In this document: positions 1 through 23,663 of the stretch, piece by piece | Numbering within the stretch: position 1 is the first letter of the stretch | Layout of the letters: each line of letters begins with the position of its first letter | Origin: Synechococcus sp. | GTDB taxonomy: Bacteria; Cyanobacteriota; Cyanobacteriia; Thermostichales; PCC-7336 | Length of the DNA: 23,663 nt | Direction of reading: 5' to 3' | Assembly: GCA_051439425.1 (NCBI GenBank) | Contig: JBFRWD010000113.1 | Coordinates: 1-23,663 of the forward strand | Made by a program: the position numbers

Positions 1-3000
1 AGTGGCTATCTCAACTGCCTGGTATTCAGCCAGAGTGGAATAAACAGCTTTTTTCTGAGATGCTGACTGCTTCAATTTACCCCATAGTGCATCCCCATCA
101 ATGTCAATGACAAGTTAGGCGAGGCACTGCTATGGTTTCTCCTACTGCTAATCTGCCTACTATCCGCCACCAATTGTCTGATTTGATTAGTCAGCTCTTT
201 TGGAGCTTTAGTTACAAGTATAGTACTCGGTGTGAAAACAAATTTCTTCAATTGTTTACAATAGTACGTAAGTATTATAATTTCCTTGAAACCATGAAAT
301 ATGCGATTGTTAAGGCAACTAAGTACTATAAGAAGAATACCGTCAACGAATGGACTACTAACCTTAATCAAGCCCTGATTCTCAAAAATCTTAACTATGC
401 TCAGGCACTCACTGATAAGTTCGGTGGGGAAATACTTCCCGTTGAGGAATAAAATGCCGAGCTGGTTGGTCTATGCAATGAACTACTAGACTTAATGGTT
501 AAGGTGTTTTAATTTCTTAGCTACAAATATATTACCAGACAAGAATTACTTGACAGACCCAAGAAAACTAGTCTGGGTTTAGGGGCAATACCCCTGAATG
601 AAAATTTCAGGCTGCCTCTGGGGGGATGATCTGTAGGTCTTTTTTAACATCTCTAGAGCTGGAGCGATGCTGACTGGTTTTACGTTTGAATTTAGACATT
701 TTCACCTTGACCACTCGTTCATTCACTCGCGCTCTTCGGGGGCGATCAGGCGGAGCCTGGCACTGCGTGATCGAGCTCGGCTTGAGCAATTAAGCTCACT
801 AAGTATTGATGCTGGTGTGCCAATTCTTGACAGGGCAAGGGTTGACTCATGTGCGGGACTGCATCAATCACCAGTTGTAAACAATCAAGAAAGCCGAGTA
901 ATTGAGGGTCTTTTTGAACTGGTGTGGCTGCTTGTAGCATCAGTTCTCGCAGCAGATTGTAGACAATCATCATGGCATAGAGTTCTTGTTCGACTAACTC
1001 TGGCAGTTTGCTGCGAAATAAGGTGGGCATCTGTCCTCGGAGGGTGGCACATTGGTGGGTTTTGATTTCATCCAGGCACAGTTCTATGTCCCACCGTTTA
1101 TGGTACTGCATCACCAACTCTGGGGCGCTGATGGTAGAGTCGAGAAGGTTGGGGACCAGACGTGCAGGACGAAAGCCTGGAATTTGATAGGTAATCACTC
1201 GCAGTGTGATTGTTTTGCTCTGCCATTTTTTCCGCTTCTCTGTGGAGTGCAAGGAGTCCAGAATTTTTCCCTGCTTGTGGCAGAGATAACTGTCGTCTGG
1301 CAATCGTTGGGCCACGGGCAAGACAGGATTACTACTGACTTTGAGGAGAAAGGCACAGTCTTGTTGCTCAATGGCCCACATCATCGGGAATGAATAGAGG
1401 CCTGCATCGACCATAAATAGCAAGTTCTTGGCTTTCAGCCGTTGGAGGATGCTCATCATCAAGGTGCGTTTTCCAGTACCTTTTCCTTTACTCGGACCAT
1501 AAGCCACATCAAGCAGTAAACGGGGACCAATGGCTAACAAACTCACCCAGCGCATTTGGGGATAGGCACTCGCTTCCCGTCTGGACTTGGTCTTGCTAAA
1601 TCGCTCCTGATTGGCCACGGTATCCGGCATAGTGCCTGTACTCCCATCGAAGGCGACACTCACCCATCCATGAAAATCAGCCCCCAGGGGGTTGAATGTG
1701 TCCACCACTCGTTCAAACAGTAGTTTAAATACCGCGGAACCCACGCGCTTTCGGGCATGAGTAATCGTACCCTCCGCCACCACTGCTTTGGGCAAGAGGC
1801 AGGACAACCAGCGCCACCCTGAAATCATCCAATTAAGGACCGCACTACAGCTCAAATCCCTTCGGATAGTCAAGGCCAGAACCAACCACACGACCAACCC
1901 CGACACTAATTTGGTTCCCTGGCGCTCTTGGTCTTGTTTGACCTGGGCTAACACCTCTGTGAGCAAAGGTCCTAGTCGTAGAGCGAACGGATTGAAACTA
2001 TATTCTGAACTAAAGTCGGCTAAGTTGCTTGGTTGGATAGCTGATTTGACCATTGAAACCTTGCTGTGGATGTGTGAATATAGGGACGTAGAATATCCTC
2101 TCACATTACAGCAGGGCACCTCTGACCCACTGGCACTTGTAAATTTCATTCAGGGGTATTGGCTTTAAGAGGGTATCAAACTATATTAGATAAGTGCTCG
2201 TCGCCTACTTTAAAGCCAGGAACGCAAATGACTCCCAAACGATTCTTGGGCGAGGTACTTATAATTCGGTGGTGTATACCACGTTCAATGACGACAAGCT
2301 CATTAGACTCGAATTTTTCGGTCCAAGACCTATTCTCTTTAGGATCGTGAAATCGGATCTCAAATGAGCCATCTAGAATAATGTAAATCTCGTCGAAGGT
2401 TTTATGGTAGTGACCTGTTGTGGGCTTCATATCAAGCCCAAACGCGAAATCAAGGCCTTTGTAATCATCACCTTGCAAAACCTCCCTGATTTTCCCACAG
2501 GTCGGAGTTTGTTTAACAACATGATCGCTCATCTTTCTAATAAGCATTGAAATTCTCCATTGCGATGTAATGATTAGATTATCGGTCTAAGATACAGGGT
2601 TGTTTTTTTTTGTCCCGCTAAATTGATAGTGCGGGTAAAGAGAGAATAGGCTCTGTGATGAGGTGGAGGCGGCTTTAAAAAGAGTTCCTTGAACAGGCGA
2701 ACATAGTTTTTCTCATCTTCTTGCTGCGTTTGTAGCCATGCTAGGATTCGTTTATGCATGACTTTAATGGCTACAAGATGAACTGGAAACGCGACGCTTG
2801 TTGTTAATTCTAATATTTCTCCAGTCAAGGGGTGTAGGCGAAAGGAAAGCCCGGATCGTCGCTTTTGGGCAAGAGACTCAGATATTATGCCAGGAATGGC
2901 TGGAGCTATCTTAGTCGTAGTTTCTGAGAAGCCCAACTCAGTAGAGATTTCAGCTATCAGTGAGGGTCTCCAGCCGAAAAACTCGTAATAGACTTTAGTG

Positions 3001-21000: not shown

Positions 21001-23663
21001 ACCATCAATCTCATCAAATACTGGAATACTAAGCATGATCTATTCTCAACTAAAACTAGGAGATATCTAAGTCATAGGAATTTAAAATAACTTGAATCAT
21101 GTAGTCAGGATTTATACTTTTTATCTTGATTTAACTAAAATAAACAAAGATTATGAGGAACTTGTGTAGTAGGCAGTCAACTTTGTTTTGAGGAATAAAA
21201 AAGAAGTTAATGTAAAGGAAAAGAACTTTAGTTTCCGCTAAGTCTGAAATAAGAAAATGAGTCCAGACTCTGAGCTGAAGCAAAAACACCTGTTATTTAA
21301 TTGACCCAAGCAGCGCATTGTTAATAAGCGATCAATGTTAGTCCGTTGATGCAGCCTTCCCGCTCATCTCACGGCACAGTTGTTGTTGAACTATACCTTT
21401 AGCTTATATTTATTTAGTTATTACTAGAGCACTGGTACAATCTCAAAATAGGTGGCGAAAGTCACAAAACTCCAAGTTTCTTCATGCACGTCTTAATCTC
21501 TCGCTCGAGAGTATGTCTCTTAATGAGGTAGAATCAAAGATTAGCAGTGGGGAAGAGATAGGAATTCGCTCTAAATAGTGAGAATTTAGGCGCAGCAGAT
21601 GGTGCCTATGAATAGAGAAGCACTTCGATTGAGGACAATTTCTTTCAGTTGAATAACCCTAATGTCAACCTCAAACGCCAAAGCCGTCATCGCTCTCAGC
21701 AGGAGATACTCTCATTGATCTTCACCGATCAAAGCTTCCAGTTCGACCAACAAAGATTTCAACTTTTCCTGTTTGTCTGGATTCGACCAGACCTTAAACT
21801 TTTTGACTCGTTTGTAGGTAGTTTCCAAGAGCTTTTGCAGTTCCATTCCCGCCGAGGGAGGCTGTAAAGCTTTTACCTGTTCTCGAATTTGATTGACTGA
21901 TAAATTATACTCAATGGCTGCTGAGAGAAGCTCCTTACGGTCAGATTCTGACTCTACCTTAGCTATCTCTCTAGCTTTGGTATATTCGATTGACCCAGAC
22001 CGCAAAGCATCCAAAATATCACCGGGAAGGTTAAGTAACGGTAACCTATGAGTGCGGAAAGACTCAGGGGACATCTTGCCTACCTTCGCAAACACCTCTG
22101 CCAGTATTTGTTTCTCTTCTGGGCGGACATCGTTGTCCGCCACCCTGCGTCGTTGAGTTTTAGACAATTTATTGAGTAAGGACACAACCCCTGCTCTATC
22201 GGTTGACAATTTCAGGGCCAATAAATCTAAAATCCCTTCCGTCTCCTCTACTGGGTTCAAATCCTCTCTTTGTAAATTCTCTGTCAGGGCATACTGTATT
22301 GCCTGAGTTTCAGACATCTCTCGGATGGTTGCAGGAACTTCCCTTAAGGAACATTCTTTAGCCGCCCGATATCTTCTCTCTCCTGCAACCAACTCATACT
22401 TATCACCCACTGGTCTTACTAACAAAGGCTGGAGAATACCTTCACTGCCTACCGACTCTACCAGAGATTGCATCGCTTTGGGGTCAAAAAAGTGCCGAGG
22501 TTGAGTAGCAGGTATGACAATCTGGGATAAAGGCACTAATTTAGAAGCTAAGGCAGAAGCCTCTTCTTCCATTTCCGGAGACACAGTAGTGCTAGCTGTT
22601 TTTTCCTGTTGAGCAACTTTTTTTGGCTTAGACTTGCTTGAACTGGTGGACACTCGTCTGGTTGTTTGTCTAGGACTCATGTTTAAACCCCCTAAAATAG
22701 TCTGAAACCATTAATTTGTATTTGCTAAGGGTGAAAAATTTTCCCAAAGCCGATCGAGCAACAAGTCTGTTTATCTGCATCACTCGGTTCTTCCCCAACA
22801 GCGCGATCAAAGCAGATATCACCGCTTGTTGTTCATTACGTAAAGTATAACGTCGGAAATCCTTTTAATGGTGTGGCTGAATTAAGAATTTTACCTACGG
22901 CGGCTTAAGAATTCGTCAATCTAATCGAAGTGCGATCGCTCTTGGTTTTAAATCGGGTGCTCGTACTTCTTTCAAGTTAAGCAGCAGCAACGATATACAA
23001 GGTTGGAGAATAGGAATTAGAATAAGTAGAATTTATCAAATTTTCGCAACAATGAGGGATCAATTCTCAGCTATACAAGACATTCAGCAGCAATTCCCTA
23101 TGCTCAGATCTTGCACCAAGAAAAGTTGATAGGAGAATGGATAGCTGAAGTGGTTGTTTAGACGAGATTGCAGCCAGTTCTCTATTGAGAATAGAGAACT
23201 AATCTCAAAAATTAATAAAAACTCCGAAGCAAGACTAATTTATTCAACCCGATGACCAACTTTTTTTCCATTACTAGACAAATCTGACTAACTGTCGTTT
23301 AGTTCATCTATGGCAAAGCGTCAATTCATCAATTTGGGCTCGTTTAACTACGGCTAAAACTCCATCTATATGTGCTTGACTTCCCGTTTTTCTAAGTGTT
23401 GAAAACGGGACTACTCATGCTCTTGATTAGTTTTGCTAACAATGGCAGTCTGAGCTTTGAGTTGATAATAAGAGAACTAAGTTCATGAATCAGATTTTAC
23501 CCCAAGCGGAAGAATTACTCTCAACCTTGAAACAACAGAACTCTTGCAAAAATATTTTGTGGTATGATTAGGAGTTATTTTGATTTCGCTTTTTGCCAAT
23601 TAAAATAGTGAGAATTGAGCAATTTTTTCGATCGAGTATTATCGGGCGATCGCCCTCATTAAA

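Follow-up and report, generated by a model that had tools for sequence, protein, structure and literature searches.

A mobile operon of large paralogous proteins with a predicted terpene cyclase-prenyltransferase fusion and putatively envelope-acting accessory enzymes

The window analysed here (23,663 nt of Synechococcus sp. contig JBFRWD010000113.1) carries an operon whose conserved core consists of seven genes: five encoding large paralogs, together with g612 and g611. Around this core, a phospholipase D (PLD)-family gene (g615) and the small g614 gene are accessories. The nine minus-strand ORFs of a preliminary description were all found at the coordinates given there, yet its nine-gene unit is too broad a label, because the PLD and g614 are accessory. 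The operon is a horizontally mobile system that has passed among about ten bacterial phyla. Our working hypothesis, to which we assign a probability of roughly 40 %, is that it encodes a putative hetero-oligomer, made in the cytoplasm and possibly terpenoid-lipidated, that acts on membranes or the envelope with the aid of swappable lytic enzymes.

Gene content, synteny and genomic setting

The operon and its flanking genes are as follows.

2574-21036, minus strand: operon of nine co-directional genes
18793..21036, minus strand: g619, 747 aa paralog of the 619/613 class
16465..18690, minus strand: g618, 741 aa paralog
14172..16451, minus strand: g617, 759 aa paralog of the 617/616 class
11527..14106, minus strand: g616, 859 aa paralog
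9866..11479, minus strand: g615, 537 aa two-HKD PLD-superfamily enzyme, accessory
9118..9762, minus strand: g614, 214 aa, free-standing N-module with low-complexity tail, accessory
6796..9006, minus strand: g613, 736 aa paralog of the 619/613 class
4552..6756, minus strand: g612, 734 aa core protein, own family
2574..4559, minus strand: g611, 661 aa, predicted cyclase-prenyltransferase fusion
21712..22680, minus strand: ParB-family gene, upstream context outside the operon
746..2149, minus strand: IS4-family transposase, downstream context

The starts of g616 and g611 were moved to 14106 and 4559, respectively, because of ortholog alignments and RBS-like sequences (of GGGAGA type for g616). 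Longer ORFs extend to 14175 and 4682; orthologs align with the 882 aa g616 ORF from residue 18-24, and in 5/5 genomes match the 702 aa g611 ORF from residue 39-43 onwards. With these starts the intergenic gaps from g619 to g612 are 102, 13, 65, 47, 103, 111 and 39 nt, and g612 and g611 overlap by 8 nt. The AT-rich stretch of 675 nt ahead of g619 shows no conservation with the closest relatives.

Gene order and strand are alike in 19 of the 29 loci found, drawn from about ten phyla, which bears out the earlier claim of synteny, and in these 19 loci every ortholog is nearer to its own counterpart than to the paralogs. All five genomes tested, and Cellulomonas too, have a g611 ortholog immediately downstream. 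The earlier PLD counts also hold: among the 19 syntenic loci the gene is complete in ten and absent from two, both actinobacterial, while it is cut by the contig end in two and not reached in five. More specifically, g615 is absent from L010 and L013 and g614 from L007 and L013; g614 is present in L010, where tblastn had missed it. The statement that the nine genes have no Pfam or PHROGs name fails for g615 (Pfam PLDc_2 at 52 bits, the cutoff being 27, and a PHROG match).

Operon loci lie in plasmid or atypical-composition settings, and the gene tree contains cross-phylum sister pairs. The ParB gene reported on this contig (Pfam ParB_N, 2e-27, and HTH_ParB) and the transposase (Pfam Nterm_IS4 and DDE_Tnp_1) flank the operon in the window.

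The paralogous proteins and g612

Sequence comparison places the five large paralogs (736-859 aa) and g614 in one large unnamed superfamily, as had been proposed. BLASTP relates g617 to g616 (4e-61), g619 to g613 (1e-45) and g618 to g617 (3e-33), and hhalign matches the g613 and g618 families with a probability of 99.9 (E 3.7e-32, 701 columns). The assignment of g614 to the N-terminal module is likewise reproduced, with a match to the N-terminus of the g618 family (probability 99.3, E 4.5e-20) in line with the earlier figures. The following features were located.

20482-21036, minus strand: g619 N-module, followed by a helical-type region and ~100 aa repeats
18136-18690, minus strand: g618 N-module
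17356-17700, 17056-17355, 16771-17055 and 16468-16770, minus strand: four homologous ~100 aa C-terminal repeats of g618 (hhalign)
12946..13233, minus strand: hypervariable low-complexity G/S/T/P/A linker of g616, residues 292-387 of 859
12910..12945, minus strand: conserved tryptophan-containing block of g616 after the linker, [VL]W[ND]x[LM]G(R/Q)PQ
9283-9762, minus strand: N-module of g614

The g618 repeats match each other with hhalign E values of 3e-6 to 1e-4, and their protein has a hydrophobic periodicity of the beta type; these two features are the sequence proxies for the putative beta-sandwich and Ig/macroglobulin-like domains proposed earlier. Its 72 homolog clusters carry source names that, where given, are always 'hypothetical'. 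Orthologs of g619 are 45-84 % identical across the 19 loci, g617 and g616 have positional orthologs, and g614 is the fastest-evolving gene, with orthologs 27-67 % identical. One N-module protein ends in a PG_binding_1 domain.

The paralogs are acidic (pI 4.5-5.2), have no transmembrane helix, carry Pro/Thr/Gly linkers and contain 0.05-0.23 % cysteine across orthologs, compared with 1.2 % in g611. No signal peptide was found in the five paralogs, the PLD or g612, and searches of Pfam, NCBIfam, PADLOC, PHROGs and the PDB revealed no sequence similarity to pore-forming toxin, adhesin or S-layer families. The linker of g616 varies in length and composition in all 15 orthologs read (TGTG, TTGTTG and PTxPT runs, for example). 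The window has a single copy of the tryptophan block that follows it, as does every one of the 15 loci extending to the site; none of the 10 variant loci has the block, and the Paracoccus p616 is without the tryptophan. We regard this block as a weak candidate for a prenyl-acceptor site.

The g612 protein, whose orthologs are 39-45 % identical, comprises a conserved N-region, a variable Pro-rich linker and a conserved C-region of ~430 aa. It has no profile relation to the paralogs and no relative in Pfam or the PDB.

The predicted enzymes g611 and g615

Domains and motifs of the two predicted enzymes are listed below.

3660..4559, minus strand: g611 N-half, monodomain (MstE-like) class II terpene cyclase domain (profile against PDB)
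4290..4307, minus strand: g611 D-A-D-S-T-A, DxD-type catalytic-acid motif, invariant in 6/6 sequences
2577..3557, minus strand: g611 C-half, DMATS-type (ABBA) aromatic prenyltransferase-like domain (profile against PDB)
10925..10990, minus strand: g615 first HKD motif, HMKFALVG...GGIDL (H164, K166)
10211..10267, minus strand: g615 second HKD motif, HPKTTLIDD...GSAN (H405, K407, D412)

Profile matches to the PDB on both halves agree with the earlier proposal that g611 is a fusion of a class II cyclase with a DMATS-type prenyltransferase. Over the whole N-half a six-sequence profile matched 8paj (2.8e-37) and MstE, the merosterolic acid synthase (6sbb; 5e-31), with 8pak and 6ij1 among the full-length matches in this range, and the acid motif corresponds in the alignment to DADTT in MstE and DADST in 8pak; use of DxD by MstE is described in passages of PMC12324236. 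Unlike MstE and the other monodomain cyclases, g611 is fused to a predicted prenyltransferase, and this C-half, which has conserved K-x-Y and R positions, matched 6zrz (7e-4), PriB (5inj; 4.5e-3) and 6-DMATS (7w8u; 0.012). Seven such fusions were found in species genomes, six inside this operon and the seventh on a 2.1 kb contig. Distant relatives with the swapped P-C order exist, one of them belonging to a RiPP-like cluster that includes a Nif11 peptide.

On these domain matches g611 appears to be related, with its domains swapped, to prenyltransferase-cyclase fusions such as NctPC, in which an ABBA P domain and an MstE-like C domain carry out C20 geranylgeranylation and cyclization on a peptide tryptophan (Hubrich et al. 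2024, Chem, as outlined in part of the review PMC13290415). Like NctPC and ChrPC of RiPP pathways, g611 combines both activities, as predicted, in one polypeptide; it differs in having the cyclase first and in its location in a giant-protein operon in which no precursor-peptide gene was found, and the comparison with NctPC is by published description. By this analogy a protein acceptor has a precedent, and g611 probably puts a ring-shaped lipid on tryptophan.

Both HKD motifs are intact in g615, in keeping with its description as a two-HKD PLD: H and K of the first and H, K and D of the second are invariant in 11/11 orthologs and 20/20 sequences. The nearest solved chain is plant PLD alpha (6kz8; 2.8e-6), which shares the GGIDL block and the presence of two HKD motifs in one chain. 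Similarity to bacterial cardiolipin synthases is weak, with scores far short of all NCBIfam equivalog cutoffs (37.8 bits where 290 are required); g615 represents its own PLD subfamily, with a conserved N-terminal M-x-T-F-x-E-x-K-x-R-Y-M motif. Antibacterial PLD effectors are known from type VI secretion. Five g615 homologs (44-47 % identity) have an N-terminal GH25 lysozyme domain and, as in endolysins, no signal peptide; two others, at 39 % identity, have Tat-like signals and two PG_binding_1 domains.

Proposed mode of action and alternatives

We hypothesize that the core paralogs, with their N-module, helical-type region and four ~100 aa beta-type repeats, would be subunits of one hetero-oligomeric assembly, synthesized in the cytoplasm without signal peptides and working at or beyond the membrane. 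The NctPC-type enzymes suggest, by analogy, that g611 would prenylate an indole, with tryptophan in one of the operon's proteins as the likeliest acceptor, and then cyclize the chain; the resulting polycyclic lipid moiety would enable a soluble subunit to grip or enter the bilayer. The accessory enzymes around the core would be swappable and envelope-acting, the predicted PLD hydrolysing membrane phospholipid. The net effect may be permeabilization or lysis of an envelope, either that of a neighbour, as with bacteriocins, or the producer's own, as regulated release or suicide.

Several lines of evidence point to envelope or membrane action: PLD relatives fused to lysozyme or PG-binding domains, adjoining Tat-tyrosinase and protease genes, the EAD1/STAND context and the cysteine depletion. 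Next after g611 come genes for a tyrosinase and a serine protease in two of the eight systems with known downstream DNA, and both operon-adjoining tyrosinases have Tat-type N-termini; together with the strong cysteine depletion these enzymes would point to a site outside the cytoplasm. The fixed set and order of paralogs, the tight spacing, the core/accessory split, the g611 and PLD evidence, the composition and linkers of the paralogs, the PG_binding_1 domain on an N-module protein, the plasmid or atypical-composition settings and the cross-phylum sister pairs also favour the hypothesis. Against it count the absence of signal peptides, of a secretion system, holin or ATPase in the operon, and of similarity to toxins, adhesins or S-layers; the PLD is dispensable in Actinomycetota, the candidate acceptor tryptophan is missing in Paracoccus, cysteine depletion and acidic pI are signs of an indirect kind, and the protease, tyrosinase and EAD1 contexts are confined to few loci.

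According to PMC10847048, lysis is the release route of Tc toxins, which are large and have no signal peptide, and the proposed assembly would resemble the Tc toxin/type 10 secretion system described there in being multi-subunit, of several hundred kDa, without signal peptides, associated with lytic enzymes and mobile. It differs in lacking sequence similarity and a holin or spanin gene, and its five subunits would be paralogs instead of A/B/C components.

An intracellular suicide or abortive-infection module, in which a sensor NTPase and protease cascade would activate the paralogs to open the cytoplasmic membrane from inside, in the manner of protease-activated bacterial gasdermins, before PLD and lysozyme destroy the envelope, appears unlikely, although it overlaps our hypothesis in the case of regulated self-lysis. 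On Paracoccus pNSM5a, the operon is directly preceded, in the same direction, by genes for an EAD1-trypsin, an EAD1-P-loop protein and a STAND NTPase, and it has a trypsin-like protease gene downstream; an S8 subtilase lies 3' of the operon in L043, and variant systems adjoin a caspase (L020) and an S8 peptidase (L022). Such a module would also fit the sporadic, mobile distribution and the endolysin-like GH25-PLD fusions. The operon is thereby reminiscent of the EAD1/STAND NTPase conflict systems treated in PMC7159879, and proteases recur near the operon's protein family, but none of its nine proteins carries an EAD, the link is seen in one nine-gene locus only, and a search of that article's text did not find 'phospholipase D', 'tyrosinase', 'prenyl' or 'terpen'. 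Moreover, the sole PADLOC match of the operon is a weak DrmC-like one of the PLD, the 17 upstream regions scanned contain housekeeping genes and not defence islands, the strong cysteine depletion and the Tat-type tyrosinases speak for a site outside the cytoplasm, and a core of seven genes over 20 kb would make a very large effector of this kind.

Less likely again is a non-lethal surface assembly (a coat, sheath or armour layer) anchored by the terpenoid lipid, in which tyrosinase would supply hardening cross-links and the PLD or lysozyme would fit the structure into the envelope. Acidic, cysteine-free proteins rich in beta-type repeats are S-layer-like, and the Pro/Thr linkers, the Tat-tyrosinase and protease genes and the PG-binding domains of relatives would suit this role. 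However, signal peptides are lacking, PLD and lysozyme are degradative, the host phyla differ greatly in envelope type, and the system is patchy, plasmid-borne and rare, the N-module occurring in 2/401 sampled Actinomycetota genomes with the starting genome counted. That the g611 product is a free meroterpenoid or indole terpenoid, the large proteins being unrelated neighbours or mere binders or carriers, is very improbable: although MstE and DMATS enzymes have small-molecule substrates (passages of PMC12324236), an adjoining tyrosinase could oxidize an aromatic product and no precursor-peptide gene was found, g611 holds the position behind g612 in different phyla and turned up nowhere else, the conserved set includes neither a prenyl diphosphate synthase nor a transporter or further tailoring gene, and the nearest fusion relatives lie in RiPP-like peptide clusters.

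The same gene order is present on a plasmid of the cultured Paracoccus sp. SMMA_5, a strain that opens the function of the operon to testing.

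Organization and distribution of the operon

The nine genes g619 to g611, given in a preliminary description as one co-directional operon, were all found as ORFs on the minus strand at 2574–21036. Two start codons were reassigned: that of g616 was moved to 14106 (859 aa), because orthologues align from residue 18–24 of the 882 aa ORF and a GGGAGA-type ribosome-binding site is present at the ATG, and that of g611 to 4559 (661 aa), since orthologues in five of five genomes align from residue 39–43 of the 702 aa ORF. With these starts the 5' end of g611 overlaps the 3' end of g612 by 8 nt, and the intergenic gaps measure 102, 13, 65, 47, 103, 111 and 39 nt. 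A consensus scan placed no terminator-like site at any minus-strand gene end and found fewer such sites than expected (12 versus 20.6 in shuffles); an Rfam search gave no match. The operon has the following surroundings.

21712–22680: ParB gene, upstream of g619
746–2149, minus strand: IS4-family transposase gene, downstream of the operon
2176–2547, minus strand: cupin-like ORF of 123 aa, beginning 26 nt past g611 on the same strand

In the other loci no such cupin-like ORF was seen after g611. The GC content of the contig is 0.483, compared with 0.513 ± 0.015 for contigs of at least 10 kb in the bin, and in tetranucleotide usage it ranks third from the bottom among 100 contigs for correlation with the genome mean; either it belongs to a plasmid or mobile element or it was binned in error. 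No further copies of the paralogue family were found in the same genome.

A pattern-based search across 185,579 species genomes identified 29 loci, which is a lower bound. The claimed conservation of order was borne out, in that 19 of these loci have the gene order and strand of the window as far as their contigs reach. The reported occurrence of the phospholipase D (PLD) superfamily gene g615 was likewise reproduced, this gene being complete in ten loci, cut by the contig end in two, absent from two (the actinobacterial loci L010 and L013) and not reached in five. The g614 gene is missing from L007 and L013, and in L010 was detected with a profile. Behind g613, g612 is present in all 11 loci that reach that far, and g611 follows g612 directly in five of five genomes, as had been stated, and also in Cellulomonas; in most loci the strand switches after g611. 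From gene presence across loci we therefore define the core as 619-618-617-616-613-612-611, with PLD and g614 as accessory genes. Thus, of the nine-gene unit originally proposed, the recurrence of gene set and order stands, but two of the nine genes are accessory and the core comprises seven. The ten further loci represent a variant consisting of three paralogues together with conserved unnamed partners of their own, and lacking both PLD and g611. In the variant loci (L020–L029, and L069 on Pararhizobium plasmid p2) the paralogues resemble g619, g618 and g617, a large insert being present in the g617-like one, and the partners are of about 700–840, 610, 470, 330 and 290 aa; in L020, domains like the C-terminal domain of ribosomal L12 occur in one partner, and the next gene encodes a PG_binding_1 protein.

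The whole nine-gene set was detected, in order, on plasmid pNSM5a of the cultured Paracoccus sp. SMMA_5, and the variant on the Pararhizobium plasmid, by tblastn against plasmids; a Deinococcus contig bearing the operon also carries RepA and ParA. Of 401 Actinomycetota genomes sampled, two contain the N-terminal module of the paralogues (N-module), a count that includes the starting genome. In a quick tree of g618 orthologues, with taxon labels as submitted, there were well-supported cross-phylum pairs of Chloroflexota with Eisenbacteria and of Myxococcota with Acidobacteriota.

The paralogue superfamily and g612

That g619, g618, g617, g616 and g613 form one superfamily, as previously suggested, was evident from all-against-all BLASTP (g617/g616, 4e-61; g619/g613, 1e-45; g618/g617, 3e-33), and the relationship claimed between the g613 and g618 families was recovered by profile–profile comparison (probability 99.9, E 3.7e-32, 701 columns). 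The description of the 214 aa g614 product as a free-standing N-module also held, its profile matching the N-terminus of the g618 family with a probability of 99.3 (E 4.5e-20); by BLASTP it aligns with the first ~160–190 residues of the large paralogues (E 4e-7 to 1e-3). An alignment of 67 N-module sequences from six paralogue classes revealed invariant M1, D19 and G96 and a G-x-P-S-L-x-G-x-N block. The first residues are M-L (or M-I) in all six N-module proteins and in all phyla (window starts 18688–18690, 21034–21036 and others).

In the g618 family, the last ~410 residues consist of four homologous repeats of ~100 aa, as judged by hhalign (D1–D2, 3e-6; D2–D3, 7e-6; D3–D4, 6e-6; D1–D4, 1e-4; D2–D4 weak, 7e-4; D1–D3 not significant). 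By hydrophobic periodicity, which is a crude measure, 61–73% of sequence windows in the N-module and repeats are of beta type, and those of residues 186–330 are 44% alpha type and 36% beta type. Repeats and periodicity are consistent with, though short of proof of, the fold described previously (a beta-sandwich module with a helical insert, followed by Ig/macroglobulin-like domains). The g612 product constitutes a family of its own, with 39–45% identity between orthologues; that it might be a diverged member of the paralogue family was ruled out (hhalign probability <1%).

The N-module profile retrieved 2,406 representatives at E ≤ 0.001 (clusters at 50% identity; 1.84 billion searched). Of the 150 representatives listed, 44 were scanned, and a genuine additional domain was seen in one of these, as a PG_binding_1 at the C-terminus. 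For g618 there are 72 related clusters, all unnamed or labelled 'hypothetical', and the clusters matched in the ESM Atlas are unnamed. The assertion that none of the operon proteins has a family name was upheld for seven of the nine (Pfam, NCBIfam, PADLOC and PHROGs) and fails for g615, which scores 52 bits against Pfam PLDc_2 (cutoff 27); g611 just misses Pfam SQHop_cyclase_C (22.6 bits, cutoff 26.1). For the five paralogues, g614 and g612, no Pfam family was found at E ≤ 1 beyond noise and no NCBIfam model matched, and paralogue and g612 profiles found no solved chain in the PDB below E 0.02; at the level of sequence, these seven proteins matched no known pore-forming toxin, adhesin or Ig-domain family. 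PADLOC models matched none of the eight non-PLD proteins, and weak DrmC-like hits for g615 (E 0.0015) were the sole matches to known anti-phage defence systems. In PHROGs, eight proteins had no match and g615 matched one PHROG of unknown function; a tblastn search with g618 against 50,697 phage records gave no match. Phage or tailocin structural modules are not supported by these searches (PHROGs for the nine proteins, phage records for g618).

The probable cyclase–prenyltransferase and the PLD-superfamily enzyme

The N-terminal half of g611, previously likened to terpene cyclases, was confirmed as such with a six-sequence profile, which over the whole N-half matched the monodomain class II cyclases 8paj (2.8e-37; profile positions 1–298 to residues 19–352) and MstE (5e-31; positions 2–300 to residues 29–366). 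A D-A-D-S-T-A motif, invariant in six of six sequences, lines up with the DADTT of MstE, which is a DxD catalytic motif according to a preprint (PMC12324236); the Paracoccus orthologue has DSDSTA in its place. The C-terminal half matched three indole prenyltransferases of the DMATS type with the six-sequence profile (6zrz, 7e-4; PriB, 4.5e-3; 6-DMATS, 0.012), and reached only E 0.14 in a single-sequence search. According to a review (PMC13290415), NctPC combines an ABBA prenyltransferase (P) domain and an MstE-like cyclase (C) domain in one chain, geranylgeranylates tryptophan and then cyclizes the chain. Like NctPC, g611 combines a C domain and a probable P domain in one chain; unlike NctPC, it has them in reversed order, and unlike NctPC-type systems no precursor peptide adjoins it. 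Indeed, no conserved small ORF of the RiPP precursor type was found in the operon, where intergenic gaps are at most 111 nt, or upstream of g619. A tryptophan motif of g616 was considered as prenyl acceptor; it was present in 16 of 16 sequences of the first set, but its tryptophan is missing in Paracoccus, leaving a weak lead.

The list of g611 homologues begins with 36 proteins at E ≤ 1e-90, followed by proteins of 640–720 aa with a C-terminal cyclase, and for five of 17 of the latter the prenyltransferase profile of g611 finds a match in the N-terminal half (2.6e-10 to 6e-6), giving the P–C order. In the species-genome collection six of seven g611-type loci are in this operon, the seventh being a 2.1 kb fragment. 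A 725 aa P–C fusion with a DADSTAW motif is found in a RiPP-like cluster of Nostoc sp. UHCC 0251 (L072, 2356–11392), together with asparagine-synthetase-like and HPr-kinase-like proteins, a TPR-WelO5-like oxygenase, a 71 aa Nif11-type peptide and an ABC exporter.

The assignment of g615 as a two-HKD PLD enzyme was substantiated by the PLDc_2 match and by the presence of both motifs of the superfamily pattern HxK(x)4D(x)6G(S/T)xN, the first with one additional residue ahead of D. The H, K and D/N residues of the two motifs are kept without exception, by 11 of 11 orthologues and by 20 of 20 sequences. Phospholipases are the closest chains of solved structure (plant PLD alpha, 2.8e-6), which, together with the fusion of relatives to lysozyme or PG-binding domains (see below), indirectly suggests that the substrate may be phospholipid and not nucleic acid. 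As a cardiolipin synthase (NCBIfam TIGR04265) g615 fails, with 37.8 bits against an equivalog cutoff of 290, and every NCBIfam equivalog score is far below cutoff. Among 120 PLD homologues listed, five (~750 aa) carry a GH25 lysozyme domain at residues 6–135, without a signal peptide, and are 44–47% identical to g615, which is the range of verified operon PLD orthologues; a further two (39% identity) each combine a Tat-like N-terminus with a C-terminal pair of PG_binding_1 domains. These relatives therefore tie the PLD subfamily to the cell wall and to extracytoplasmic action. Metagenome and genome scans for the DNA around the GH25–PLD fusions did not recover them; that the fusions themselves lie in the operon would rest on this orthologue-level identity and on one shared contig size, 12,481 bp.

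The extreme N-terminus of the PLD protein (window 11443–11479) is conserved in the PLD subfamily, reading M-P-T-F-x-E-L-K-x-R-Y-M or M-x-D-I-x-x-L-K-x-x-Y-F and then a Gly/Ser linker, and its RYM part is kept behind the GH25 domain and behind the Tat signals of the fused relatives. None of the 120 PLD homologues listed is fused to an N-module, and a role for g614 as an adaptor or immunity partner linked strictly to PLD is weakened by L010, which has g614 without PLD, and L007, which has PLD without g614. No paralogues lie near the stand-alone PLD genes of L057 and L058. In a Thermomicrobiales MAG (L002, 627–2660) a second, longer PLDc_2 gene (678 aa) is situated directly upstream of g619 on the same strand.

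Neighbouring genes and proposed function

The upstream regions of 17 loci have nothing in common overall, in agreement with the earlier statement. Four actinobacterial loci (L010, L013, L014 and L017) have, upstream of g619 and on the strand opposite to it, one or two genes for hemopexin-repeat proteins along with a Peptidase_M64 gene; in the hemopexin proteins the repeat seems to stand at the very start, without a signal peptide. In two of the eight systems with known downstream DNA, g611 is followed by a tyrosinase with a PPO1_DWL domain and then by a serine protease, which is an S8 peptidase in Bryobacterales and trypsin-like in Paracoccus. Both tyrosinases have Tat-type N-termini. A latent tyrosinase beside a protease is reminiscent of the prophenoloxidase activation cascade. 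In the Bryobacterales MAG (L043, 2086–5075) the genes after g611, on the same strand, encode the tyrosinase, a 138 aa protein whose N-terminus is hydrophobic, and the S8 subtilase. The Tat-tyrosinase gene of Paracoccus overlaps the g611 orthologue by 4 nt, the trypsin-like protease also being downstream. Immediately upstream of the Paracoccus operon, three co-directional genes encode an EAD1-trypsin, an EAD1-P-loop protein and a STAND NTPase, an arrangement that corresponds to the layout of published conflict systems (PMC7159879). These upstream and downstream features of pNSM5a lie at 8730–13614 and 32116–33642 of L067 and 2425–3354 of L068. Neighbours of the variant loci include a caspase or S8 peptidase.

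Neither transmembrane helices nor signal peptides are present in any of the nine operon proteins, and the operon itself offers no explanation of an export route. The five paralogues have a pI of 4.5–5.2 and, across orthologues, a cysteine content of 0.05–0.23%, compared with 0.43% for PLD and 1.2% for g611; g616 contains a hypervariable Gly/Thr/Ser/Pro linker of about 60–200 residues. Judged from sequence, these paralogue traits, the relatives bearing PG-binding, lysozyme or Tat elements and the Tat-tyrosinases would fit a site of action outside the cytoplasm better than one inside. Our working hypothesis, to which we give a probability of roughly 0.4, is that the paralogues may form one hetero-oligomer acting on a membrane or the envelope, that g611 would supply a polycyclic terpenoid, probably on a subunit tryptophan, and that PLD, lysozyme, tyrosinase and proteases would be interchangeable helpers. 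The target could be the producer, in regulated lysis or suicide, or a neighbour, and the sequence does not tell which.

Among rival readings, a purely intracellular suicide effector is unlikely, a structural surface layer is slightly less likely still, and a small-molecule pathway is very unlikely. Whatever probability the hetero-oligomer hypothesis and these three rivals leave over is unexplained. It is also conceivable, albeit improbable, that the operon encodes a self-delivering machine: the five paralogues and g612 would assemble in the cytoplasm, g611, as a dedicated enzyme, would attach a polycyclic terpenoid resembling a sterol or hopanoid to a tryptophan in one of the full-size subunits, and with this lipid anchor the signal-less complex would insert into membranes and bring along or let in exchangeable enzymes that degrade the envelope (PLD, lysozyme). 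If so, no such lipidation would have been seen before on a protein, as opposed to a short ribosomal peptide.

In the literature searched, we found neither the operon nor the N-module family described. Its enzymes belong to known families, as new members or variants, and the core of seven genes corresponds to no known type of system. This core is the best-conserved form of an unnamed superfamily of 2,406 representatives, and has moved among about ten phyla. Since the cultured and non-pathogenic Paracoccus sp. SMMA_5 (on its plasmid) and Deinococcus aquatilis DSM 23025 carry the system, genetics, proteomics and mass spectrometry are feasible. If g611 lipidates an operon protein, tryptophan terpenylation on the scale of a protein would be a new post-translational membrane anchor, and if the paralogues form a membrane-active hetero-oligomer, they would represent a new family of lytic or delivery machines.
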